A stretch of 64,000 nt of DNA from an uncultured Gemmatimonadales bacterium (GTDB lineage Bacteria > Gemmatimonadota > Gemmatimonadetes > Gemmatimonadales > GWC2-71-9). The stretch spans positions 192,001 to 256,000 of the forward strand of contig CAVUAK010000002.1 of assembly GCA_963739455.1 (NCBI GenBank), in the 5' to 3' direction. Each line of letters starts with the position of its first letter. The stretch's first letter is position 1. A program made the translations under genes and the position numbers. The notes beneath the pieces were generated by a model. It ran no database searches, had not been told where the DNA came from, and saw only the letters and a list, made by a program, of their open reading frames with translations. Shown piece by piece: positions 1 to 19,447 of this stretch.

Positions 1-1289
1 CGCGCTGATGGCACGCACCGCCATCTCGACGTTGTCGGGATGCACGACGTCGGTGACGTCCTCGGCGGTGCCACCGGTGGAGAGATTCGCCGTCGTCCGC
101 AGGTAGACGACCTGGCCCGCCTCAGGGATGGAATCGCGGTTGAAGCCATGCTCCTCGAGCAGGCGCTCGGCCTGGTAGTCGAAGTCGATCCGGGTGAGCA
201 CCTTCTCGTGCCCGATGCCGCGGCGCGGATCGCGGTTCACTTCGTCCACCAGTTGCGCGATCGTGTGCGCGCCGTCGCCCACCACATGGCCCGGCATCCG
301 CTTCGAGACGGCGATGAGCTGGCCGTTCACCACCAGCATGCGATGGTCGTGGCCCACGATGAACTTCTCGACGATGACGCTGCGGCTGATCGCCTGCGCC
401 ACGTGGAAGGCGGCGATGACCTGCTCGGCATCGGCGAGGTTGATGGACACCCCGCGCCCATGGTTGCCATTGTACGGCTTCACCACCACCGGATACCCGA
501 TGCGGGATGCCGCCGACACCGCATCGGTCTCGCGCTGGACCAGGCGCTGCTGCGGCACCGGCAGGCCCAGGTTGCCGAGGATCTTGTTGGTCTCCTCCTT
601 GTCGGAGGCGAGCTCGACCGCGATGTTGGACGTGCGGCTGGTGACGGTGGCCTGGATTCGCTGCTGGAACCGGCCGTGACCGAACTGGATCAGGCTCTGG
701 TCGTTGAGCCGGATCCACGGGATGCCCCGCTCCTCGGCCGCGCGCACCAGCGACATCGTGCTGGGTCCCGAGGTTCCGGCGCTGGGCGAAACGAATGAAG
801 CTGTCGCGCTCCTCCGCGAAGTTGAACGGCTCGTCGGCGTTGTCCACGTGCATGTCGGCCGCGAGCTCCGGCGGCAGCAGGCTCCGGAGCAGGCGCATGG
901 CGAAGGCCGCCGCCTCGAGCCCCACCGTCTGCTGTTCGTACTCGAATACCACGTGGTAGAGCCCGGGCAGGTCCGCGCCGCGCGTCTTGCCGAACGACAC
1001 CTGGTGCCCGGCGATCGCCTGCAGCTCGATGGCCACGTGCTCGAGGATGTGGCCCATCCAGGTCCCCTCATCCTCCGTGCAGGCGCCGCACGAAGCCGCC
1101 GGGCTCGCCATAGGAGCAGCCGTGCTCGCGGAGCCCGGGCAGCAAGGTGAGCAGCCCCTCGATGAACGGCGCGCCAAGGCGGCTCGAGGGCCACTCCTCG
1201 AGCTTGCCGAGATCGACTTCGAGACGGATGACCGGGAAGAGCGCGTACACGCTCGGTCCCACATAGACCGAGCGATCCAGGATACGCAT
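1..1289 (-). CDS. cphA: Cyanophycin synthetase, N-terminal part (runs off window; frameshifts near ~1075 and ~770)
   Basis: Joined frames read MRILDRSVYVGPS..HGCSYGEPGGF / EGTWMGHILEHVAIELQ / GPSTMSLVRAAEERGIPW..KPYNGNHGRGVS..ANLSTGG (ATP-grasp); directly downstream of cphB. Confidence 0.92.
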
Positions 1290-1307
1290 GGGTGAGGCCC
1301 CTCGGCG

Positions 1308-2150
1308 TCAGCCCCGGCCGGTGGCAGCCGGCGGGGCGTGCGCCTTTCGTCGGTGGAGATCGTAGCCGGCACCACGTACGAGCACGTGGAGCCGTACCCC
1401 GATCAGGCAGATCGGATCGCCCTTCTCCGCCTGGTCCATGGAGGAGTACTCCACGTCGGCAGGGTCGATGATGGTGATGGCATTGCTGCCCACCACCTCC
1501 AGCGTGTCATCCGGCCCGATGAACGCCGCCGTGTCCTCGTCCAGCCCAAGCCCGATGCCGAACGGATTGTACGCGAGCGCGGTCAGCAGCCGGCCCAGCC
1601 GGTCGCGCTGACGGAAATGTTGGTCTATAACGACGCGGTTGGTAAGACCCAGGCCCGGGGAGAGGGTCACGTCGCCCGAATGGGGGGTGGACCCCTCCTC
1701 CCCGCTGGCGATCATGTGCTCCGACAGGAAGGCCGCACCGGCCGAGGTACCGGCCACATGCACCCCCGCCGCGTTGAGCCGCCGGAGCGCGCGTGCCACC
1801 GAGGTGCCGCCCAGCGTGGTGGCCAGCCTGAGCTGGTTGCCACCGGTGAGGAACACGCCCCGCGCATTCTCGAGCGTGGCCAGCTTGTCGCCGTCCTCGC
1901 AGTCGGCCCGGGTCTCGAAGTCGAGGATGTCCACTCGCTTCGCACCGAGCTCCCGGAAGAGCGCCTCGTAGCGCTCACCGGTGTCGGCGAGGCTCGAGGC
2001 CGTGGGGATGACGACGATGCGCGCATCGCGCCCGCCGCAGAGCCGCACGAACCGCTTCAGGATGAGGGGGCTGCCGATCTTCGATTCGGCGCCGCCAACC
2101 GGGATGATGAAACCACGCACGTCGCCCTCCAATGACTTTGCCGGGCTCAC
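1308..2150 (-). CDS. cphB: Cyanophycinase (peptidase S51)
   Basis: IIPVGGAE, TGGNQ, GTSAG nucleophile, DQHF, GLDEDT motifs; adjacent to cphA. Confidence 0.93.
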   Translation of the reverse strand: MSPAKSLEGDVRGFIIPVGGAESKIGSPLILKRFVRLCGGRDARIVVIPTASSLADTGERYEALFRELGAKRVDILDFETRADCEDGDKLATLENARGVFLTGGNQLRLATTLGGTSVARALRRLNAAGVHVAGTSAGAAFLSEHMIASGEEGSTPHSGDVTLSPGLGLTNRVVIDQHFRQRDRLGRLLTALAYNPFGIGLGLDEDTAAFIGPDDTLEVVGSNAITIIDPADVEYSSMDQAEKGDPICLIGVRLHVLVRGAGYDLHRRKAHAPPAATGRG

Positions 2151-3317
2151 GAATCCTCTTTCTCAAAGGGTCCCTGAATGCGGGGCCGCCCATCGAACCG
2201 ATGCCAGCGCCCGCGCGCCATCACGTGCCGTACCGCATTGTCGGCCTGCAGTACCACGAGGTCGGCGTCAGCACCGACCTCGAGCCTGCCCTTCCCGGGG
2301 AGCCGCAGGAGCTCCGCCACGTTGCTCGTGAACGGCGGCAGCACCTGCTCCAGCGGACGCCCGCGCGCGAGCAGCGCACTGAGCGTGACTCATGAGCGCA
2401 CCAGGCGCGCCCACGTCCATTCCCGACACCCGACCATCGCTGTCGAACCGCGGCAGGCACCCACCACCATCCGAGCTCACCGTCACCCGCTCGGCGGGCA
2501 GGCCGGCATCCCAGTAGCGCTCCAGCGCATCCTCGGCCGCCCAGGCATCCTCACCATCCTCCACCGGGAATGCCGTGATGTCGATGGTCGGGCCGCGCTC
2601 CACCAGCGCCATGGCCTCGGCGAAGAGCGCCTTCCTGCGATTGACGTGCGTCGGGTTGAACACCCGCGCCGGCAACTCGCTCGTGTCGAGCGCCTGGCGC
2701 ACCAGCTCGAGACCGCGCGTGCCGTCGCCCACATGCAGGTGCACGATGCCGGCCTTGCCGCTCATGAGCCCGCCCACGTGCGCCTCGGAAGCGAGGCGCA
2801 GCAGGTCGTCCAGGGTGGGCTGGCTCGATCGATGATCGCTGATCGCCACCTCGCCAACCCCGATGATCTCATCGATGAGCGCGATGTCGCCACGCACGGT
2901 GCCGCTGAGCGTCGTCGGCGGCAGGTGGTAGCCGCCGGTGTGGCACCAGGCGGACAACCCGAGCTGCCTGAGGCCACGCGCCACGGTGACCAGTTCCGCT
3001 GTGGTGCGCACCGCATCGTCGGTGCCGAGCACCCCGATCGCGGTGGTGATACCACCTGCGGTAAGCGCGGTGACCTTGAGCGGTGGCACCCGGGTATGCG
3101 GACCCGCCTCGCCGCCGCCGCCCGTGAGGTGCACATGCCCGTCGATGAGGCCGGGGATGACGCGCAGTCCGCCGAGATCCATCTCGGCCACACCGAGCGC
3201 CGCCGGAAGATCCGGGAGCCGGGAAGCCATGGCGACGATCGTTCCGCCGGCAATGAGCAGGTCCTGGCGGCCGAGCCGCTCAGGAGCGTACAGCTCCGCC
3301 TGACGGAGGACGATCAT
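2147..3317 (-). CDS. iadA: Isoaspartyl dipeptidase / beta-aspartyl peptidase (frameshift near ~2385)
   Basis: PGLIDGHVHLTGGGGEAG, GEVAISDHRSSQP, HLHVG, PTHVNR, SSDGGG; C-terminus in ORF 2147..2344 (GRLEVGADADLVV); stop overlaps cphB start. Confidence 0.92.
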
Positions 3318-7281: not shown

Positions 7282-10050
7282 TTACCCCGTGGCCCCGAAC
7301 CCCGCGGCAATCGTGCTGATCGACAGCAGTAGCGCCGAGAGCACTTCCTTCCGCTCGGCCTCGTCGGTGGCACCCCGGAACTGCCGGATGAATTGCACCT
7401 GCTGACGGCTCACCTGGTTGAGCACCGGGAGCCGCCGGCCCAGCCGCCGCAGGAACCGGGGGAACTGCTCCGCCGGCGTTGCTGCTCCGGTGACCCGCAG
7501 CACCATCTCGCGTGTCCGCTCATACTCATCGACGATGAGCCCGAAGATCGCCTCCCGCGGTTCCGCGTCAGGCACCAGCGACGCAAACTCGCGCGCGATG
7601 TCCAGGTCCACATAGGTCAGCGTCTTCTCCACCTCATCCATGATCAGGCGGAACAGGCGCGAGTCGCGGTACATCCGGCCGATGAGCGCCTCGCCCCGCG
7701 CACCGCGCACCTCGAGGAAGGTCGCGAGCCCGCTGCCGACGCCGAACCACCCCGGCACGAAATGCCGGTTCTGTGACCATGCGAAGACCCAGGGAATGGC
7801 GCGGAGGTCGGAGAGTGATCGGGCACCGAAGCGGCGCGCGGGGCGCGAACCGAGATTGAGCAGCGCAAGCTCGTCGAGCGGGCTCGCCGCCTGGTAGTAG
7901 GTGAACAGGTGCGGGTGCTCGACGAATCGGCGGTACGCTGCCTGGGCAGCGCCGGACAGGGCCTCCAGCGCCTCGTCGAATTCCCCGACCGGCGCCAGCG
8001 CCTCCTCGCGCTCCGACTTGAGCGTGTGCACCATGACGCTCGATGCCAGCAGCTCGCACTGGTACTGCGCCGTGCCGCGGTTGGCGTACTTGTAGGACAC
8101 CACCTCGCCCTGCTCGGTGATGCGCATCCGCCCCTGCACCGATCCCGCCGGCTGTGCGGCGATCGCGCGCCCCAGCGGCGCACCGCCGCGACTCACCGAG
8201 CCGCCGCGACCGTGGAAGAACACCAGCGGCACGCCCGACTCCACTCCCACACGCGTGAGCTTCCGCTGGGCCTTGCTGAGTTCCCAGTTGGAGGTGAGGA
8301 ACCCGCCGTCCTTGTTCGAGTCGGAATAGCCGATCATCACTTCCTGCACCCCGCCCTGTCCCCGCACGCTGCGCTTCACCACCGGGATTGCCAGCAGCTC
8401 CCGCATGATGCCGGGGGCCCGCTGCAGGTCATCGATCGTCTCGAAGAGCGGAACAATCGGCAGTGAACAGCGCTCCACTGCCGCCTGGTCGGCGAAGAGG
8501 CCGCCTTCCTTGGCGAGCAGGAACGCCCCGAGCACGTCACTCACCGACCGCGTCATGCTGAGCACGAAGGAGCCGAACGCCTCGCGATCCACCTCGTCGC
8601 GCTGCTCCGCCACCAGGCGGAACATGCCCAGCGTCTCCTGCTCATCGGCGGGCAGTATCACCGGCGCTTCGTCCGGCCGGCGGGGACGGGCCAGTTCCGC
8701 CAGCAGCCAGTCGCGCCATTCGTCGCTCGTCACGTCGGGCGGATCGCCGGCGGCCGGCTGGCGCACGCGCCACAGGGCATGCAGCGCTGCCGTGAGCTTG
8801 GTGGAGTTCTCCCGCAGGTCGAGTCGCGTGGTGCTGAAGCGGAACGCCTCCACCTCGCGCCGGAGCGGTGTCACCACCCGGTGCTCCAGGCCGCCGCCCA
8901 TCGCCTCCGCAAGCGCCTGCTCGAGCAGCCGCAGGTCGGCCAGCAGCAGGTCGGCGCTGGGATAGCCATCCTCGCCCGCAATTCTCCCCTGCTCTGCCGC
9001 GTGCAGCGTTGCATCAAGCCGGAGCGTCATGCATGCGAGGAACTGCCGGAACACCTCGCCGGGGTTCCGGTTCGTGATCCCGTCTCCGTCCCCACTCTGC
9101 GCCAGCGCGCGGTCGAGCGCCAAGCGGAACGCCGGCGCCACCTGCACCGCGCGATCCGAGATACTCAATCGCCTCACCAGCTCCGTGAGCCGCTGCCGGT
9201 ATCGGCGCAGGGACGCGACCCGGTTCTCGTTGAGGGTGTTTCGGGTGACTTCGTTGGTGACGAACGGGTTGCCGTCGCGGTCTCCACCCACCCACGATCC
9301 GAACTGGAAGAACGGTGAGACATTGAAGGTGACGCCAGGATAGAACTGCGCGAGCGCCAGCTCCAGGCGCTCCAGGGTCTCGGGCACCGCGTCAAACAGC
9401 GTTTCCTGGAAGAAGTGCAGGCCCCAGTACACCTCCTGGGGCACGGTCGGCTTCTCCAGCCGCAGCTCGCCCGTCATCCAGAGCAGGTCGATCTCGTCCC
9501 GCAGCTGGTCCTCGAGCGCCCGGCGCTCGCGTGGCGTCCAGCGCGGCGACTCGAGGTCCACCAGCCGACGATAGATGCGGCGGTGCTTTTCCAGCACCGT
9601 CACACGCTTCGCCTCGGTGGGATGGGCCGTGATCACGGGACGTATGCGCAGGCGCTCCAGCAGGGCCTCGATCGCGGACGCCGGCGTGTCGGTCGCCACC
9701 GCCTCGGCGAACACGCCGGCAAAGGTGCCCTTCACGCCCTCCAGGCCGCGCGCCACTTCGACCTGCCGGCGGCGACGCATCGCTGCATTCTGCTCTGCAA
9801 TGCTGAGGAGCTGAAACCAGATGCCCTGCGCCTGGAGTGCCCGCACACACCGATCGATGGGAAGGTCCAGGCCGGACGCGTCGCCGCGCACGACCGGTTC
9901 GATGTCCGGGGCCCGGACGCGAATGACGTCGACCAGCAATGTGTAGAGGAGTTCCGCGACCTCGGTGGCATACGCCGCCGCGCTCGCGGCCACCGGGTCG
10001 GCCGATGTGGGGAGGTCCGCCGACGCGAACGGGTGCAGCAGGTCGGACAT
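7282..10050 (-). CDS. ppc: Phosphoenolpyruvate carboxylase
   Basis: VITAHPTE, GSWVGGDRDGNP, QEVMIGYSDSNKDGG, FHGRGGSVSRGG, TEQGE, LRAIPWVF. Confidence 0.96.
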   Translation of the reverse strand: MSDLLHPFASADLPTSADPVAASAAAYATEVAELLYTLLVDVIRVRAPDIEPVVRGDASGLDLPIDRCVRALQAQGIWFQLLSIAEQNAAMRRRRQVEVARGLEGVKGTFAGVFAEAVATDTPASAIEALLERLRIRPVITAHPTEAKRVTVLEKHRRIYRRLVDLESPRWTPRERRALEDQLRDEIDLLWMTGELRLEKPTVPQEVYWGLHFFQETLFDAVPETLERLELALAQFYPGVTFNVSPFFQFGSWVGGDRDGNPFVTNEVTRNTLNENRVASLRRYRQRLTELVRRLSISDRAVQVAPAFRLALDRALAQSGDGDGITNRNPGEVFRQFLACMTLRLDATLHAAEQGRIAGEDGYPSADLLLADLRLLEQALAEAMGGGLEHRVVTPLRREVEAFRFSTTRLDLRENSTKLTAALHALWRVRQPAAGDPPDVTSDEWRDWLLAELARPRRPDEAPVILPADEQETLGMFRLVAEQRDEVDREAFGSFVLSMTRSVSDVLGAFLLAKEGGLFADQAAVERCSLPIVPLFETIDDLQRAPGIMRELLAIPVVKRSVRGQGGVQEVMIGYSDSNKDGGFLTSNWELSKAQRKLTRVGVESGVPLVFFHGRGGSVSRGGAPLGRAIAAQPAGSVQGRMRITEQGEVVSYKYANRGTAQYQCELLASSVMVHTLKSEREEALAPVGEFDEALEALSGAAQAAYRRFVEHPHLFTYYQAASPLDELALLNLGSRPARRFGARSLSDLRAIPWVFAWSQNRHFVPGWFGVGSGLATFLEVRGARGEALIGRMYRDSRLFRLIMDEVEKTLTYVDLDIAREFASLVPDAEPREAIFGLIVDEYERTREMVLRVTGAATPAEQFPRFLRRLGRRLPVLNQVSRQQVQFIRQFRGATDEAERKEVLSALLLSISTIAAGFGATG

Positions 10051-11022
10051 CTAGACCACGCGGTCGCGGAGCGGCTTGCCGGAAAAGAAGAGGCGAAGGT
10101 TTTCGAGCGCTCGCATGCCCATGGCGGCACGGGTTTCCCGTGTGGCGCTCCCCAGGTGCGGGAGGAGGACCACGTTCTCCATGGTGAGCAGCGCCGGCGT
10201 CACCACCGGCTCGCGCTCGAACACGTCGAGACCTGCGCCGGCGATCTGCCCCGACTGGAGCGCAGCAACCAGGGCGGCCTCATCCACCACGTCACCGCGA
10301 GCGGTGTTGATGAGGAATGCCGACTTCCGCATGCGGCCAAACCGTTCGGCATTCATGAGGTGCCGCGTCTCCGGCGTGGCGGGACAGTGCAGCGACACGA
10401 AATCGCTGCGCTCCAGGACCTCCTCGAGCGACCCGAGTCCTTCGGCGCCGAGTGCAGCCGCTTCCTGCGGTGATGGCGGGAACGGGTCGTGGAACAGCAC
10501 CTTCATGCCGAAGCCGTGGTGTGCCCGTCGCGCCACGGCGCGCGCGATACGGCCCATGCCGATGAGGCCAAGGGTCTTTCCGCTGACCTGCGTACCGATC
10601 ATGTGCGTCGGGCGCCAGCCCGTCCACTGTCCTGCCCGCAGGTGCCGCTCGCCCTCGCCTGTGCGGCGCGCCACGGTGAGCAGCAGGATCATCGCAATGT
10701 CGGCGGTGGCATCGGTGAGCACGTCGGGGGTGTTCGACACCGAGAGCCCGCGCGCCTTTGCGGCGTTCACGTCGATATGGTTGAACCCTACCCCGAAGTT
10801 GGCCAGGAGCCGTGCCCGCAGGGGCTCCGTCGCCAGCACATCGGCGGTGAACTTGTCGGTCACCGTCGGCAGGATCGCGTCCGCCGAGCGGAGTGCCTCC
10901 TGCAGCTGGTCCGGCGTCAGCGGCTTGTCGTCCGGGTTGAGTCGCGCGTCGAAATCCTTCTGCAACTCCGCTTCCACCTCGGCCGGCAGCTTGCGCGTCA
11001 CCACCACAACGGGGCGGCTCAC
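10051..11022 (-). CDS. D-glycerate dehydrogenase / hydroxypyruvate reductase (D-2-hydroxyacid dehydrogenase)
   Basis: NFGVGFNHID, NTPDVLT, GLIGMGRIA, INTARG, LDVFERE, PHLGSAT; context implies the Hpr role. Confidence 0.88.
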   Translation of the reverse strand: MSRPVVVVTRKLPAEVEAELQKDFDARLNPDDKPLTPDQLQEALRSADAILPTVTDKFTADVLATEPLRARLLANFGVGFNHIDVNAAKARGLSVSNTPDVLTDATADIAMILLLTVARRTGEGERHLRAGQWTGWRPTHMIGTQVSGKTLGLIGMGRIARAVARRAHHGFGMKVLFHDPFPPSPQEAAALGAEGLGSLEEVLERSDFVSLHCPATPETRHLMNAERFGRMRKSAFLINTARGDVVDEAALVAALQSGQIAGAGLDVFEREPVVTPALLTMENVVLLPHLGSATRETRAAMGMRALENLRLFFSGKPLRDRVV

Positions 11023-11930
11023 ACCTTCACCGTTGTCTTGCTGCTGCGCGACGCGAGCGCCTTTGCTACCGTGGTGCCCAGCTCCGCCGGGCTCGGCGCG
11101 ACCGTCAGGCCCAGCGAGCGCATGATCTCCGCCTTCTCGGCCGCCGTATCGCCGAATGCCGAGATGATGGCGCCCGCGTGGCCCATGCGCCGGCCCTTCG
11201 GCGCGGTGAGACCTGCCACATAGCCGACCACGGGCTTCTTCATGTTCTCCTTGACGAACTGCGCGGCCTCGGCTTCCTGTGGCCCGCCAATCTCGCCGAT
11301 CATCATGACGGCGTCGGTCTCAGGATCCTCCTCGAACAGCTTGAGGACGTCGAGGAACGAGCTGCCGTTGATCGGGTCGCCACCGATGCCAACACTGGTC
11401 GTGATGCCGATGCCCAGGGCCTTCATCTGGGACGCCGCCTCATAGCCCAGTGTGCCCGAGCGCGATACGACACCCACGTTGCCCTGCATGTAGATGTGGC
11501 CCGGCATGATCCCCATCATCGCCTTGCCCGGCGAGATGACGCCCGCGCAGTTGGGACCGACGAGCATGGTCCGCTTCTCCTTGGGGAAGCGCAGCATGTA
11601 GCGCTTCACCATCATCATGTCCTGCGCCGGGATGCCATCGGTGATGGCCACGACGAACTTGATGCCCGCCGCCGCGGCTTCCATGATGCTGTCGGCGCAG
11701 AATGCCGCCGGCACGAACACGAGGCTCGCCGTGGCGCCCGCCTGCTGCACCGCTTCCTTCACGGTGTTGAAGACCGGCCGGTCGAGGTGCTTCGCGCCGC
11801 CCTTGCCGGGCGTGACGCCGCCCACGACGTTCGTGCCGTAGGCGATCATCTCCTTCGCGTGGAAGGTCGCCTTGTCGCCCGTGAAGCCCTGGACGATGAC
11901 GCGCGTGGTTCCGTCGATCAGGATGCTCAT
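11019..11930 (-). CDS. mtkB: Malate-CoA ligase (malate thiokinase) alpha subunit, SucD-like
   Basis: VQGFTGDKATFHAKEMIAYGTNVVGGVTPGKGG, GPNCAG, MGHAGAI phospho-His; beside mtkA and mcl. Confidence 0.85.
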   Translation of the reverse strand: MSILIDGTTRVIVQGFTGDKATFHAKEMIAYGTNVVGGVTPGKGGAKHLDRPVFNTVKEAVQQAGATASLVFVPAAFCADSIMEAAAAGIKFVVAITDGIPAQDMMMVKRYMLRFPKEKRTMLVGPNCAGVISPGKAMMGIMPGHIYMQGNVGVVSRSGTLGYEAASQMKALGIGITTSVGIGGDPINGSSFLDVLKLFEEDPETDAVMMIGEIGGPQEAEAAQFVKENMKKPVVGYVAGLTAPKGRRMGHAGAIISAFGDTAAEKAEIMRSLGLTVAPSPAELGTTVAKALASRSSKTTVKV

Positions 11931-11933
11931 GGG

Positions 11934-13131
11934 TCAGGCCCTCCCCGCCGCAGTAGACCGCCCCTTCGCGTCATTCATTGCCTTCACCACTCGCTCCGCC
12001 GCATCCGCCAGGGAGTCGGCGGTGATGATCGGGAAGCCCGCTGTCCTTGAGGATCTTCTGCCCCTCGACGACGTTGGTGCCGGCCAGGCGCACCACCAGC
12101 GGGATCTTCATCTGGGTCTCGCGCGCGGCCTGCACCACGCCCTGCGCCACCCAGTCGCAGCGATTGATGCCGGCGAAGATGTTGACCAGCATCGCCTCGA
12201 TCTTGGGATCGGCCAGCACCAGCCGGAACGCCGCGGCAACGCGCTCCGGGCTCGCGCCACCACCCACGTCGAGGAAGTTGGCCGGCTCGCCACCGGCGTG
12301 CTTGATCATGTCCATGGTCGCCATGGCCAGGCCGGCACCATTGATGATGCAGCCGATGTTGCCGTCGAGCGCCACGTAGTTGAGGCCGTGTTCCCCCGCC
12401 TGCGCCTCGCGCGGATCCTCTTCGGCGTAGTCGCGCAGCTCGGAGACATTGGGCCGGCGGAAGAGGGCGTTGTCGTCGAACGTCATCTTCGCGTCGAGCG
12501 CCAGCAGCGACCCGTCCTTCGTCACCACCAGCGGGTTGATCTCCACCATCGTCGCGTCGAGGTCCCGGAACGCCCGGTAGGCGCCGAGCAGCGTGGTGAC
12601 GGCACGGCTCACCTGCGCCGGCCCGAGGCCCAGCCCGAAGGCGATCTCCCGCGCCTGGAACGCCGTCATGCCGATCGCCGGCTCGACCACTTCGCGCAGG
12701 ATCGCGTTGGGCGTGTTCTTGGCGATCTCCTCGATCTCCATGCCGCCCTGTGGCGCCGCGACCACCATGATGCGCTCGCTCTTCCGGTCGAGCACCAGGC
12801 CGACGTACAGCTCGCGCTCGATCGGCACCGCCTGCTCGATATAGAGGCGGTGCACCACGCGTCCCTCGGGGCCCGTCTGGTGCGTGATCAGCCGCTTCCC
12901 CAGCAGCGCCTTGGCGCCCTGCCGCACCTCGTCCTCGGTGCTGCAGATCTTCACGCCGCCCGCCTTGCCGCGCGCGCCGGAATGGATCTGCGCCTTCACG
13001 GCCCAGCGCGTACCGCCGATTTCCGAGGCCCGGTACACCGCCTGCTCGGGACTGTAGGCCACGCCCCCGCGGGGAATGACGACGCCGAAACCGGCGAGAA
13101 GTTCCTTGGCCTGATATTCGTGGATGTCCAC
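11934..13131 (-). CDS. mtkA: Malate-CoA ligase beta subunit, SucC-like (frameshift near ~12035)
   Basis: [62 protein letters not shown] (Mtk-like rather than SucC FGGIVRCD). Confidence 0.85.
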
Positions 13132-13143
13132 AGAGGTCTCCGT

Positions 13144-14097
13144 TTACTTGGTCTTCGTGCGGGCGGCGACCTTCTCGCCGATCTCAACGATCACCTGCGC
13201 CTGCCGTGCACTCGCCGCGTCGATCATGCGGCCGTCGAGTTGTGCCGCACCCTTGCCCTCCTTGGCCGCCTCGATCGAGCGCCGCCAGGATGCGATGCGC
13301 CCGGTCCACCTCCGCCGGCGGCGGGGAGAACACCTCGTTCGCCAGCGCCACCTGCGACGGATGGATGGCCCACTTCCCCTCGATGCCGAGCGCCGCATCG
13401 CGCTTCGCGGCGAGGACGTAGCCGTCGGGGTCCTTGATGTCGCCGAACGGGTCCGTCGATGGCGCGCAGTCCGTAGGCGCGACAGGCCACGGTCATGCGG
13501 GAGAGGGCGAAGTGCCACTGGTCACCGGGATAGTCGGGATTGAGGCCGCCGATGTTCACGGTGCGCGCGCGGACACTGGCCGCATAGTCGGCCACGCCGA
13601 AATGCATCGCCTCGAGGCGCTTGCTCGACTGCGCAATGGCCTCGACGTTCGCCATGCCGAGCGAGGTCTCGATCAGGACTTCCAGGCCGATGCGATGGGA
13701 AATGCCCTTGGCGATCTCGATCTGCGTCAGCAGCGCATCGGTGAGGTAGACATCCGCGGCGACGCCCACCTTCGGGAATCAGCACCAGGTCCAGCCGGTG
13801 CCCGGCCTGCTCGATGACGTCCACGACGTCGCGATAGAAGTAGTGGGTGTCGATGCCGTTGACCCGCACCATGATCGTCTTGCCCGCCGCCCGCCAGTCG
13901 TGCTCCAGGAGCGACGCAATCACGTTCAGCCGCGCCTGCTCCTTGTCCGCGGGAGCCACGGCGTCCTCGAGATCGAGGAACACCGTGTCCGCGTCACTCT
14001 CCAGCGCCTTGCCGAACATTTGCGGCTGGGAGCCCGGGACCGCCAGTGTGCTGCGCTGCAGGCGGGTCTGGGCTGGCTCGAACCGCGTGAAGCTCAC
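13144..14097 (-). CDS. mcl: Malyl-CoA lyase (CitE/HpcH family; ~3 frameshifts)
   Basis: RLQRSTLAVPGSQP, FLDLEDAVAP, VRVNGIDTH..RDVVDV, LIETSLG, MHFGVADYAAS, DQWHFA, AAQLDGRMID across ORFs 13522..14097, 13224..13769 and 13144..13518. Confidence 0.88.
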
Positions 14098-15335
14098 GCG
14101 ACCCCCGCCGGCTGCCGTGCCGGCGCCGCCGACTCGGCGGGCCCGGCCACCTTCTTCGCCGGGAGCGGCTTCGACGTCTCCAGCCAGTACTTCTGGGCGG
14201 CGGCGACTCCACTCCCCAGGTCCACCTTGATGCCCACATCGGACATCGCCATCTCGGCGCCACCGATTCCGGCAAGCAGCGTGATCTCGTTCAGGTCGCC
14301 CAGGTGACCGATGCGATACAGCTTGCCGGCCACCTTGTTGAGCCCGGCGCCGAGCGCAAAATTGTACCGGCGGTACGCAACGTCGATCACGTCACCACCG
14401 TTGAACCCGCTCGGCACCATGATGGCGCTCACGGTGTCGGAGTGCCACTTCGGCGCCTTCGCGCACAAGGTGAGGCCCCAGGCCTTCACCGCGCGACGAC
14501 ATCCTTCCGCCAGCCGGTTGTGCCGCGCAAAGACGTTCTCCAGCCCCTCCTCGAACAGCATGTTCAGCGCCTCGCGCAAGCCGTACAGCATCGGGATCGA
14601 CGGCGTGTACGGGAAGTAACCGGTCGCGTTTGCCTTGAGCATGTCCTCATAGCTCCAGTAGCAACGCGGGAGCTTCGCCGTCTTGCCCAGGTCGATGGCA
14701 CGCGGGCTGGCGCACACGATGCCCGCCCCGGCCGGAAGCATGAAACCCTTCTGCGAGCCGGTGACGCAGATGTCGACCTTCCATTCATCCATGCGGAAGT
14801 CGAGGCTCGCGAGCCCCGAGACGCTGTCCACGAACAGGAGCGCCGGGTGCTTCGCGGCATCCATCGCCTTGCGCACCGCGCCGATGTCGCTGGTGACACC
14901 CGTGGCGGTCTCGTTGTGCACCACGCACACCGCCTTGTACTCGTGCTTCGTGTCCTTGCTCAGCAGTTCGTGGATCGTCTCGGGCGGCGCGCCCTCGCCC
15001 CACTCGACGTCCACCGCCGTCACGTCGAGCCCCAGCCGCTGCATCATGTCGATCCAGAGGTGGCTGAACTGCCCGTAGCGGAACGAGAGCACCTTGTCGC
15101 CCGGCGACAGCGTGTTCACCAGCGCCGACTCCCAGCCGCCGGTGCCGGTGCCCGGGAAGACGATGGCCTGGCCCGTTTCCGTCTTGAAGACCTTCTTGAG
15201 GTCGCTGAGGATCGGGCCGGCGAGCGCCGGGAACGACGATGAGCGGTGATCCTCCATCGGCACGTGCATCGCCCGGAGGATCCTGTCGGGGGAATTCGTT
15301 GGCCCCGGCACGAAGAGAAGATTGCGACCCGACAT
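14094..15335 (-). CDS. sgaA: Serine-glyoxylate aminotransferase (class V PLP)
   Basis: GRNLLFVPGPTN, EDHRS, GTGTGGWE, VHNETATGV, TGSQKGFMLP, GYFPYTP, RIGHLG; GAGG RBS. Confidence 0.92.
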   Translation of the reverse strand: MSGRNLLFVPGPTNSPDRILRAMHVPMEDHRSSSFPALAGPILSDLKKVFKTETGQAIVFPGTGTGGWESALVNTLSPGDKVLSFRYGQFSHLWIDMMQRLGLDVTAVDVEWGEGAPPETIHELLSKDTKHEYKAVCVVHNETATGVTSDIGAVRKAMDAAKHPALLFVDSVSGLASLDFRMDEWKVDICVTGSQKGFMLPAGAGIVCASPRAIDLGKTAKLPRCYWSYEDMLKANATGYFPYTPSIPMLYGLREALNMLFEEGLENVFARHNRLAEGCRRAVKAWGLTLCAKAPKWHSDTVSAIMVPSGFNGGDVIDVAYRRYNFALGAGLNKVAGKLYRIGHLGDLNEITLLAGIGGAEMAMSDVGIKVDLGSGVAAAQKYWLETSKPLPAKKVAGPAESAAPARQPAGVA

Positions 15336-15467
15336 TGCCAAACCTCACGCGAAGTAGGAAACCTGCTCCGCGGCCTCACCGGGCCCCGGCTCACCCCGAG
15401 CAGCGCGACTGTCCGCTACTGGTATATTCAACCGCTCAGCGACTCAACACCAGCCTGCAAGAACTTC

Positions 15468-16802
15468 ATGATCGAGAACTTACCCGCCGGCACGCCGGAC
15501 CGCGCGTTGCTGGAGGACCTGTACCATGCCGCCGTGGCGGCCGTCGATCCCGGCCCCGCCGTGGCCGCGGCACTCGAGTCGGGCGGGCACCTGCTCGCCG
15601 CTCGTGGCCACGGGCTCTGGATCCTCGCGCTCGGCAAGGCCGCGATGCCAATGGCCGAGGCGGCAGTGCGCGCGACGCAGCGTGCCGGCCTCGAGATCAG
15701 CGGTGGCCTGGTGGTCGCCCCCGCCGGCGCACCGGCCCCCCATCCTGCCATGCCGCTCGTCGTGGGCGATCACCCCGAGCCAGAGCAAGGCTCGCTCGCC
15801 GCGGCGGCGGCGCTTGGTCAGGTCGCCTCTCGCGTCCGCCCCGGCGACCATGTCTGGGTGCTGCTCTCGGGCGGCACAACGAGCCTCATCGGCGCGCCCG
15901 TCGAGGGCATTACCCCGGGCGACCTTCGCGAGTTGTACCGACTCCTGCTCGGGTCAGGCCTCGACATCAGCGCCATGAACCGGGTCCGGAAGCGCTTCAC
16001 CCGCTGGGGAGGCGGAAAGCTCGCCGCGGCACTCGGTCGGGCCACGGTCCGCCAGTTCATCGTCTCCGATGTCATCGGCGACGACCTGCCATCCATCGGC
16101 TCGGGGCCGTGCGTCCCCGATCCCGCGACTGCCACCGAGGTGCGCCAGGCCCTCGAACACGCCGGCACTCTGGCAACGCCTGCCCGATTCGCTCCGCCAG
16201 CTCGTCACCGACACCGAACATGGCACACGACCGGAAACACCGAAGCCGGATCACCCGGCGTTCGCCTCGGTGGTTACGGAAATTGTGTCGAGTAATCGGC
16301 TGGCGCTGGAAGCGGCGGCCGGGCGTGCGGCAGTGTTGGGCCTCGTCCCCGAGATCGCGCCCGAACCCCTGGCCGGGGAGGCGAACCTGATCGGAACGAG
16401 TGTAGCCGCGACTTTGAGAAATTATTCACAAGCGCACGGAACGCAAGGGACCGCAAGGCGTTGCGTGATTCTTGGGGGTGAGACCACAGTGACGCTGGGG
16501 ACGGGTCACGGATTGGGCGGACGGAGCCAGGAACTGGCCCTGGCGGCGGCGAGGGCACTGGCGGGAACAACGGGGAATTTCGCTGCTCGCGGCCGGCACC
16601 GACGGGCGGGATGGGCCGACCGACGCGGCAGGCGCCATGGTCGACGGGTCCACCTGGTCGAGCGATGACGGCGGCGGGACGAGACCCGGCCGCCGATCTG
16701 GCCCGTCACGATGCCTACCCTGCCCTGAAGGCCGCGGGCGCGCTCTTCCAGCCCGGGCTTACTGGAACGAACGTGATGGACGTCGTGATCGGGCTGGCGT
16801 GA
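15468..16802 (+). CDS. Glycerate 2-kinase (TtuD/MOFRL family; frameshifts ~16175, ~16575, ~16660)
   Basis: ALGKAA, GDHPEP, LSGGTTSL, SDVIGDD..IGSGP, GGETTV, GGRSQE, GTDGRDG, TGTNVMD. Confidence 0.9.
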
Positions 16803-17759: not shown

Positions 17760-19447
17760 ATGACTGCGCTTATCGAATGCGTTCCCAACTTCAGCGAGGG
17801 ACGCGACCCCGAAATCATCCGGCAGATCACCGCGGCCATCGAATCGGTCGAGGGCGCGACCCTGCTTCACGTCGACGCGGGCAAGGCCACCAACCGTACC
17901 GTGGTCACGCTCGCCGGCCCGCCCGAGGCGGTCGTCGAGGCGGCCTTTCGCGGGATCGCGAAGGCCACCGAGTTGATCGACATGCGACACCACTCCGGCG
18001 AGCACCCGCGCATGGGCGCGACCGATGTCTGCCCCCTGGTGCCGATCAGCGGCATCTCGATGGAGGAGACGGCCGCGTTCGCGCGCCAGCTCGCCGGGCG
18101 TGTCGGCACCGAGCTCGGCGTCCCGGTCTACCTCTATGAAGCCGCCCAGTCCAACCCGGCGAAGAAGAACCTCGCCACCATCCGCGCCGGCGAGTACGAG
18201 GGACTGGCTGCGAAGCAGGCCGACCCGGCATGGAAGCCCGACTTCGGCCCGACCGCCTTCAACGCGAAGAGCGGCGCCACCGTCATCGGTGCGCGCGACT
18301 TCCTCGTCGCCTACAACGTCAACCTCAACACCACCTCCACCCGGCGCGCCAACGCCATCGCGTTCGACGTGCGCGAGGCGGGGCGTCCTGCGCGCGATGG
18401 CGACCCGCTCACCGGCAAGGCAGCTGACCGACGCTGCGGGACGACCCGTGATGGTGCCGGGCACGCTCAAGGCGGTGAAGGCGATCGGATGGTATATCGC
18501 CGAGTACGGCCTGGCCCAGGTGTCGATGAACCTCACCGACGTCGCCGTCACGCCACTGCACGTGGCGTTCGATGAAGTCTGCCGCGCGGCGGAAGCAAGA
18601 GGCGTGCGAGTGACCGGGTCGGAGCTGGTGGGCCTTGTTCCGCTCCAGACGATGCTCGACGCCGGTCGCCACTTCCTCCGGAAGCAGCAGCGCTCGCTCG
18701 GCGTCTCGGACCAGGAACTGGTCCGGACGGCCATCCGCTCCCTGGGCCTCGATGAACTGGCGACGTTCAACCCCGACGAGCGGATCATCGAGTACCGGTT
18801 GCGCGACCGTTCGGGCGGCCGGCTGGTCAGGATGACGGTGCAGGCCTTCGCCGACGAGACCGCCGCCGAGTCGGCGGCACCGGGTGGCGGCTCAGTGGCC
18901 GCCTTGCTGGGCACGCTGGGCGCCGCCCTCGGCACCATGGTGGCCAACCTGTCGGCACACAAGCGCGGCTGGGACGAACGCTGGGAGGAATTTTCACAGT
19001 GGGCTGAGCGCGGCCAGCGGCTCAAGGACGAGCTGCTCCGGCTGGTCGACGAGGACACCATCGCCTTTGAACGGGTCATGACGGCACTGTCGATGCCCAA
19101 GGCCACACCTGGGGAGAAGGCGACTCGCGCCGCCGCGCTTGCCGCGGCCAATCTCGGCGCGCTCGAGGTGCCATGGCAGGTGATGCGCACGTCGTTCGAG
19201 GCCTTCGACCTCCTGGCCGCGATGGCCGAACGGGGCAACCCCGCGTCGGCGTCCGACGCGGGTGTCGGCGCCATCTGCGCCCGCGCGGCGGTCCGCGGGG
19301 CCTGGCTCAACGTCCGCACCAATGCGGGTGGCGTGAAGGACAAGGTGAAGCTCGAGGAGATCCTGGCGGCAGGCGCTCAGCCTCGAACGAGCGGCGGCCG
19401 AGCGCGAAGCCGCGATCCTGACGATCGTTGAATCGAAGTTCGCCTAG
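17760..19447 (+). CDS. ftcd: Bifunctional glutamate formimidoyltransferase / formimino-THF cyclodeaminase (frameshifts ~18420, ~19380)
   Basis: IECVPNFSEGRD, HSGEHPRMGATDV, AQVSMNL, GSELVGLVP; cyclodeaminase domain APGGGSVAA..GNPASASD..NVRTN. Confidence 0.93.

Follow-up and report, generated by a model that had tools for sequence, protein, structure and literature searches.

The 64,000-nucleotide stretch analysed here (positions 192,001 to 256,000 of contig CAVUAK010000002.1, assembly GCA_963739455.1; the window) belongs to an uncultured Gemmatimonadales bacterium. At positions 7282-16802 it carries seven serine-cycle genes, sga-mcl-mtkA-mtkB-hpr-ppc on the minus strand and a divergent gck. 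The cluster probably encodes dedicated serine-cycle enzymes that assimilate methanol carbon, with glyoxylate regenerated by a divergent isocitrate lyase (ICL) and not by the ethylmalonyl-CoA pathway. This bears on whether methanol serves gemmatimonads for energy alone or for biomass as well; genes for oxidation and assimilation travel together in about a fifth of the sampled genomes. The genome studied (3.6 Mb; G000, contigs given as C1 to C3) is 83.7% complete, and gene absences in it are provisional.

In the proposed cycle, methanol would be oxidised to formaldehyde and formate. Formate would be converted to methylene-tetrahydrofolate (methylene-THF) by FtfL and FolD, and GlyA would form serine from glycine. 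Serine would pass through hydroxypyruvate (Sga), glycerate (Hpr) and 2-phosphoglycerate (Gck) to phosphoenolpyruvate (PEP). Ppc would then fix CO2, MtkAB would activate malate and Mcl would split the product to acetyl-CoA and glyoxylate. Acetyl-CoA would be carried to isocitrate, from which ICL would release a second glyoxylate and succinate, and AceK would hold back isocitrate dehydrogenase. Malate synthase would be dispensable for this closure. The initial annotation had proposed one-carbon assimilation through the cluster in a non-proteobacterial organism. Gene content supports that proposal, and from it we infer a flux of methanol carbon into biomass through the cluster.

Serine-cycle enzymes and their proposed one-carbon supply

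Coordinates and order agreed with the original description of six packed or overlapping minus-strand genes and a divergent glycerate 2-kinase gene. Minus-strand neighbours overlap by 4 bases (mcl with the sga stop, hpr with mtkB) or are separated by 0-12 bases; ppc abuts hpr, and gck starts 132 bases from sga. The beta and alpha subunits of the predicted malate-CoA ligase are encoded by mtkA (11934-13131, minus strand, start at 13131) and mtkB (11019-11930, minus strand). MtkA scored 675.8 bits on the malate-CoA ligase model NF010647 (cut-off 604) and 527.7 bits on the SucC model. In a 109-row tree, long and fully supported branches part all MtkA rows from SucC. MtkB (69% identity to Aminobacter MtkB, 76% to Methylobacterium MtkB) groups with malate thiokinases, away from SucD. 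A separate sucCD was located at C2:79704-81707 (identity 47% for MtkA-SucC and 49% for MtkB-SucD), and both mtkAB and sucCD were present in 3/3 MtkA carriers checked. By phylogeny, MtkAB is a true malate thiokinase; the counter-case that it might be the only copy of the SucCD of the tricarboxylic acid (TCA) cycle did not hold, as MtkAB clusters with malate thiokinases and a separate sucCD exists. The closest named relatives of MtkA are Gemmatimonadales, Gemmatimonadaceae and Gemmatimonadota metagenome-assembled genomes (MAGs), at 81-89% identity; kin of the genome studied are placed among these MAGs in the MtkA tree, which points to Gemmatimonadales.

Malyl-CoA lyase is encoded by mcl (13144-14097, minus strand), whose frame pieces share 51-76% identity with Aminobacter Mcl. 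The intact orthologue in G213, a genome of the same genus, had malyl-CoA lyase 5ugr as its best PDB match (E 3e-119), above CitE-like proteins. The product of sga (14094-15335, minus strand; 413 amino acids from ATG; PF00266), a predicted serine-glyoxylate aminotransferase, falls in a 99%-supported clade with Sga of Methylobacterium, Methylocystis, Methylocapsa and Methyloversatilis; the single BhcA included lies outside. Hydroxypyruvate/glyoxylate reductase, encoded by hpr (10051-11022, minus strand; PF02826/PF00389), is of the Aminobacter/Methylomonas type, 63% identical to the Aminobacter cluster gene and 31% to Methylobacterium HprA, and in the PDB it matches glyoxylate reductases as well as D-glycerate dehydrogenase (1gdh). 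PEP carboxylase (ppc, 7282-10050, minus strand; 922 amino acids; PF00311, 784 bits) gave a single tblastn match in the genome, the only copy found, and is 61% identical to Methylobacterium Ppc. It contains TAHPTE and GYSDSNKDGG, which we take to be the Ppc motifs. The glycerate 2-kinase gene gck (15468-16802, plus strand) is of the MOFRL type (DUF4147 + MOFRL; PF13660 + PF05161), and its intact G213 orthologue matches glycerate kinase 2b8n (E 7e-60). The assignments of Sga, Hpr, glycerate 2-kinase and Ppc as serine-cycle enzymes thus hold at the level of sequence and phylogeny.

Relative to G213 and G200, likewise of the same genus, seven single extra bases break mcl (at about 13270, 13447 and 13773, giving four frame pieces), mtkA (about 12030) and gck (about 16166, 16571 and 16663). 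The insertion in mtkA shifts the final ~30 codons; the assembled open reading frame stops at 11971, and the downstream stop was located. At 4/4 sites compared, the extra base is missing from short-read contigs of relatives (public runs). The housekeeping genes infB, lon, hflX, rarA, sucC and eno of the same assembly are likewise frame-broken, and by a rough script count 11/32 query frames lie in more than one frame (including duplicates and one paralogue case). The frameshifts therefore look like long-read errors. Window GC is even (0.64-0.72), and at third codon positions the cluster genes (0.85-0.92) are close in GC to two neighbour genes (0.83 and 0.86); composition thus gives the cluster no appearance of a recently acquired island. 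No regulator gene lies inside the cluster. A promoter and terminator scan gave 0 and 3 predictions, respectively, which did not exceed the yield from shuffled sequence, and the best shared 8-mer occurred in 6/27 gemmatimonad upstream sequences, which thus have no common motif.

The remaining genes were sought elsewhere in the genome, and the searches proposed at the outset for xoxF, pqq, ftfL, folD, glyA and sucCD all returned hits. xoxF (C1:1137807) neighbours XoxJ, cytochrome c and a tetrahydromethanopterin (H4MPT) island (RFAP synthase, mch, fhcABD, mtd, fae); the WDYDG motif of XoxF presumably marks the lanthanide-type Asp. pqqBCE, NAD-formate dehydrogenase, ftfL and folD were found, as were glyA (C1:2180878), eno (C1:2187622, split) and mdh (C2:107379-108056). 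gltA, acnA, icd with adjacent aceK (C1:2576131-2577837), sdhAB and a fumarase-type motif are also present. Absence of any route to methylene-THF and of glyoxylate regeneration had been named as a ground for dismissal; against it stand candidate genes for both, ftfL and folD for the former and those for ICL, citrate synthase, aconitase and AceK for the latter. Of the one-carbon sources initially listed (methanol, methylamines, formate, methyl groups), methanol/formaldehyde is favoured by xoxF and the H4MPT island, and no gmaS passed its cut-off. No RuBisCO was found in the genome (83.7% complete) and neither Hps nor GmaS passed its cut-off (methylamine dehydrogenase was not searched for); the Calvin cycle, the ribulose monophosphate (RuMP) pathway and entry by N-methylglutamate were rejected accordingly.

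Four further pyrroloquinoline quinone (PQQ) dehydrogenases are encoded at C3:119747-121549 and at C1:1404728, 913146 and 1571009. The one on C3 passes the methanol/ethanol cut-off and reads WDFDS at the metal-binding motif. A bifunctional formiminotransferase-cyclodeaminase gene lies in the window at 17760-19431 (plus strand), 1 kb from gck. The one Fch-like sequence in the genome is the C-terminal domain that it encodes (40% to Methylobacterium Fch). The gene was not counted as an fch of the cluster, which it adjoins in 0/20 relatives.

Proposed glyoxylate regeneration and the probable divergent isocitrate lyase

For the survey of the phylum, 251 genomes were used, including the one studied. 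MtkA gave 52 matches at E 1e-150. G011 was dropped (505 bits over its full length; taken as SucC by score alone), and G127 and G241 were kept, being below the cut-off but cut by contig ends. This left 51 MtkA carriers and 200 others, the latter including G155, which is flagged as unpublished. The carriers comprise 46 genomes of the family studied and 5 of a second family, in 14 genera, and such kin are not independent. XoxF orthologues were called at an identity of at least 63%, a threshold parted by a gap from the next value, 59%; as scoring covered five candidates per genome, some orthologues may have been missed.

ICL is the most likely route of glyoxylate regeneration. The best ccr-like match reached 163-173 bits (cut-off 378.55), and ccr passed its cut-off neither in the genome studied nor in any of 52 relatives (50 carriers plus G184 and G189); the ethylmalonyl-CoA pathway was rejected on this basis. 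Of the regeneration genes suggested for checking (ccr/ecm or aceA), ccr was not found, and aceA is represented by a divergent homologue that scores below the AceA cut-offs. This gene, C2:400562-401752, is the only member of the ICL family found in the genome. It encodes a protein of about 380 amino acids with 28-31% identity to E. coli AceA. An insertion follows the CGH of its catalytic loop, which reads RTCGH here as in 119/120 homologues. Malate synthase was not found in the genome.

In alignment with E. coli AceA (E. coli numbering), the RTCGH enzyme keeps SGW, D108, D157/E159, H184/E186, C195-G-H, R232, W287/E289, N317/S319/S321 and F349/T351. We take these to be the catalytic Cys and His, the metal ligands, the glyoxylate site and the W/F/T positions separating ICL from methylisocitrate lyase. 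The AlphaFold model (predicted local distance difference test, pLDDT, 88) has isocitrate lyases as best fold matches, with template modelling (TM) scores of about 0.8, and ICLs rank above methylisocitrate lyases in both sequence and fold searches. Compared with AceA of E. coli, Brucella (3e5b/3oq8) and Chloroflexus (6lrp), fold and active-site positions are thus alike, whereas overall identity, the catalytic loop and the stretch following it differ.

Orthologues of more than 70% identity occur in 37/251 genomes, 35 of them MtkA carriers (35/51); the intact one of G213 lies at C7:656774-657913 of that genome. In another twelve carriers the ICL is of canonical type, with KKCGH in all 7 that were aligned, and no canonical ICL was matched beside the RTCGH enzyme in the 37 genomes. 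The RTCGH gene adjoins hflX/rarA, not aceB, in 9/9 loci read. aceK accompanies it in 36/37 genomes, as against 11/53 genomes with other ICLs and 2/161 without ICL; overall, 40 of the 49 aceK-bearing genomes among the 251 are MtkA carriers. The nearest relatives among 1.84 billion representatives are proteins of 880-920 amino acids. In 50/50 such long relatives (mostly 875-922 amino acids), malate synthase is fused to an ERTCGH ICL domain of 56-62% identity, and all five entries that give an organism name Elusimicrobia. Three indirect lines, namely the near-constant company of aceK, the failure to match a canonical copy alongside and the malate synthase fusions as nearest kin, suggest that the RTCGH protein is a working isocitrate lyase.

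An ICL homologue is present in 47/51 MtkA carriers and 43/200 others. ICL without malate synthase was found in 15 of the 47 ICL-bearing carriers and in 1 of the 43 ICL-bearing non-carriers, which is the pattern expected if Sga, and not malate synthase, consumes glyoxylate. Among the 15 are G200 and G213, at 97-99% completeness, as well as four genomes whose ICL is canonical, so the pattern concerns more than one lineage. If the predicted activity is real, the RTCGH proteins would constitute a new ICL subfamily lying below standard model cut-offs, and the glyoxylate-shunt capacity of these genomes is probably under-called.

Distribution, phylogeny and precedents of the cluster

Of the oxidation genes, mch was found in 48/51 MtkA carriers against 8/200 other genomes, and an XoxF orthologue in 45/51 against 6/200. 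The suggested check of synteny across Gemmatimonadota bore out the cluster: the core order sga-mcl-mtkA-mtkB-hpr is kept in 20/20 related carrier loci from two families, with ppc next in 18 and gck divergent in 15. An order common to all 20 relatives argues that the cluster is not a product of chance. Further non-proteobacterial holders of MtkA with sga and/or mcl-mtkB were seen among MAGs, under the names Candidatus Cybelea, Verrucomicrobiia, Acidimicrobiales and Pseudonocardiaceae (binning not checked).

The order was first called rearranged. It does differ from that of Methylorubrum, but it is not new: sga-mcl-mtkAB(-hpr)(-ppc) corresponds to the published type I/II order, type I in the present case (PMC13199381). 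Mesorhizobium kowhaii and four Gammaproteobacteria MAGs share the full order sga-mcl-mtkA-mtkB-hpr-ppc, and Aminobacter aminovorans pAA01 has this order except for ppc; the Aminobacter gene set is described in PMC8235418.

Trees were built from the 80 best MtkA relatives and chosen genomes; this sampling is biased, and no transfer direction or donor is claimed. In a concatenated MtkA+MtkB+Ppc tree (35 rows, quick IQ-TREE, LG+G4), gemmatimonads (support 92) and Methylobacterium/Methylocystis/Methyloversatilis/Methylibium (100) are sister clades on a joint branch with a Shimodaira-Hasegawa-like approximate likelihood ratio (SH-aLRT) of 100. Quick single-gene trees of MtkB and Ppc had suggested a nesting of the Methylobacterium-type genes within gemmatimonads, which the concatenated tree did not uphold. 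FastTree placed Mcl and Hpr with the Aminobacter/Methylomonas type. Sga shares a clade with the Methylobacterium type, and its placement within that clade is not resolved by the tree. By these affinities the cluster enzymes are a mosaic of types. Within the gemmatimonads, Sga of the studied genus sides with genera g7/g24 in the trees, but its MtkA and MtkB side with g4, which may reflect replacement of a gene within the operon.

Compared with type I clusters (SecR), the gemmatimonad locus has a like gene order, like Mcl and Hpr, and FolD plus FtfL as the predicted route for THF-bound one-carbon units. It differs in that gck, not secR, stands beside sga (a distal secR was not searched for), that it is tied to XoxF/H4MPT and not to methylamine oxidation, and that Sga, MtkAB and Ppc fall in another clade. 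The SecR box CCYACCCG was present in 0/27 gemmatimonad 170-base upstream stretches; it was found in the M. kowhaii control and was absent from 3 other controls. With type V (Methylobacterium/Methylorubrum, Methylocystis, Methyloversatilis) the locus shares sister MtkA+MtkB+Ppc and the Sga clade. In contrast to the type V order sga-hpr-mtdA-fch-mtkAB-ppc-mcl, however, its gene order differs, no mtdA-fch is present in the cluster, Hpr (31%) and Mcl are of other types, and no ccr/ethylmalonyl-CoA pathway was found in the gemmatimonads.

The serine cycle in this phylum, like the type I order, is already known. Butterfield et al. 2016 (PMC5103831) reported Gemmatimonadetes XoxF beside H4MPT genes, PQQ synthesis, a THF-to-serine route and a canonical malate-intermediated serine pathway; columns of their Fig. 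S4 appear to list malate-CoA ligase, malyl-CoA lyase and isocitrate lyase, the column layout of the PDF being uncertain. In its available text, that paper holds no operon description, enzyme phylogeny or assignment of gemmatimonad glyoxylate regeneration; ICL is discussed there for Rokubacteria, and the kinase is given as "glycerate kinase", as against the MOFRL glycerate 2-kinase found here. A serine pathway was noted in most XoxF-bearing MAGs of another study that included gemmatimonads (PMC10875860). Gemmatimonadota are a common soil group, and soil proteomes contain abundant XoxF from them (PMC5103831, PMC6784897). The serine-cycle MAG of PMC8782848 is a Chloroflexi genome and not relevant here.

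A serine cycle combined with the glyoxylate shunt is likewise described in two reports. In Methyloversatilis universalis the two work together, with icl transcripts of 12,175 and 8,390 on one-carbon substrates against 354 and 270 for malate synthase (PMC5023235). In Binatota order UBA9968 another non-proteobacterial, ICL-type serine cycle was predicted from genomes (PMC8262859). The gemmatimonads are alike in the predicted regeneration of glyoxylate by this route. In 35/51 carriers, however, the predicted ICL forms a subfamily of its own (RTCGH) with no link to aceB, and many carriers lack malate synthase. Searches of the open-access literature turned up no paper that describes the RTCGH enzyme or the gemmatimonad operon, and the new part is probably the closure of the cycle by this unusual ICL type.

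Alternative explanations and further observations

Several observations weigh against closure of a methanol-fed cycle by the RTCGH enzyme. The protein falls below both curated AceA cut-offs (186 against 562 bits, and 176.5 against 275.9 bits), reads HLENQ-x-RTCGH for KKCGH, and carries D187N, T290F and H356R (E. coli numbering). Its gene is not adjacent to the serine-cycle cluster, and the 37 genomes that carry it are probably one lineage, so that its co-occurrence with MtkA may reflect a single event. Malate synthase is kept by 33/51 MtkA carriers, four carriers show no ICL, and two, G043 (4 contigs, 97% complete) and G137, show neither mch nor an XoxF orthologue; these two may feed the cluster from another one-carbon source. 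The cluster lacks an mtdA-fch pair and the sole Mtd is encoded in the H4MPT island, so the reductive one-carbon step rests on FolD, which would run reductively to methylene-THF. ftfL, present in 48/50 carriers and 45/50 non-carriers, does not discriminate and was rejected as a marker of methylotrophy.

The low identity to AceA, the altered loop and the insertion after CGH would also suit some other C-C lyase of the superfamily, with glycine replenished by amino-acid uptake or by reverse glycine cleavage, for which gcvP and gcvT motifs are present in the genome. This is clearly unlikely given the retention of aceK in all but one RTCGH genome, the failure to match a second, canonical ICL there, the RTCGH motif in every malate synthase fusion and the ranking of ICLs above methylisocitrate lyases. 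An auxiliary use of the cluster, in which methanol is burned for energy (with light as a further source in the studied genus) and growth proceeds on multi-carbon substrates, is considered unlikely. Here the enzymes would scavenge one-carbon units or glyoxylate into acetyl-CoA and C3/C4 pools, and there would be no growth on methanol alone. Closely related mcl/hpr/mtkAB sets do occur in Methylomonas and other Methylococcaceae, which assimilate mainly by RuMP; FolD in place of MtdA/Fch, the lack of a regulator gene and SecR box, and the presence of pufLM are also compatible with such a role. However, no RuBisCO or Hps was found as an alternative, the dedicated enzymes stay together across two families, and ICL is retained where malate synthase has been lost.

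The loss of malate synthase from 15 of the 47 ICL-bearing carriers, most of them with aceK, and the reversibility reported for Mcl (PMC3832036) could instead point to a two-carbon module. ICL, Mcl in the condensing direction and MtkAB in reverse would then replace malate synthase on acetate or fatty acids, and Sga, Hpr and Gck would handle glyoxylate or glycolate. Since this leaves unexplained both the tie to mch and XoxF and the malate synthase retained by 33 carriers, it is highly unlikely as the main function, although the enzymes could serve it as a secondary role. Two further ideas are scarcely credible: decay of the cluster in this strain, with mcl, mtkA and gck as pseudogenes, and a BhcA identity for the aminotransferase, which would then belong to the beta-hydroxyaspartate cycle. 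The seven frameshifts would favour decay, but they are single extra bases missing from same-genus genomes and short-read contigs, and essential genes are equally affected; the pseudogene reading was rejected. Sga scored 599 bits on the BhcA model, below the cut-off of 650. In the genome no BhcD match was found, and BhcB/BhcC-like matches reached only 28-41% and were unlinked; BhcA was rejected on the missing BhcD match and on the Sga tree, which sides with serine-cycle enzymes.

Beyond the proposed methanol-assimilating serine cycle closed by ICL, a broader reading is plausible but falls a little short of probable. In it, a large Gemmatimonadales clade would consist of methanol growers whose cycle is closed by an undescribed RTCGH ICL subfamily, shared only with Elusimicrobiota malate synthase fusions and kept after repeated malate synthase loss. 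The operon would form a bridge, combining the ancestral type I order with enzymes sister to the Methylobacterium type, and in the studied genus it would be paired with photosynthetic reaction centres.

Photosynthetic reaction-centre genes pufLM were found at C3:219224-220882 and in 4/50 other MtkA carriers (G200, G213, G076 and G161). Public sequencing runs included no listed RNA run, DNA shares were at most 0.12, and no habitat is claimed. A gene resembling aminoglycoside 6'-N-acetyltransferase lies at C1 about 2504035-2504502 (136.6 bits, just below the cut-off of 140). Window positions 1-3317 (minus strand) carry genes that we take to resemble cyanophycin synthetase, cyanophycinase and isoaspartyl dipeptidase; the latter two also adjoin ppc in G213 and G200.

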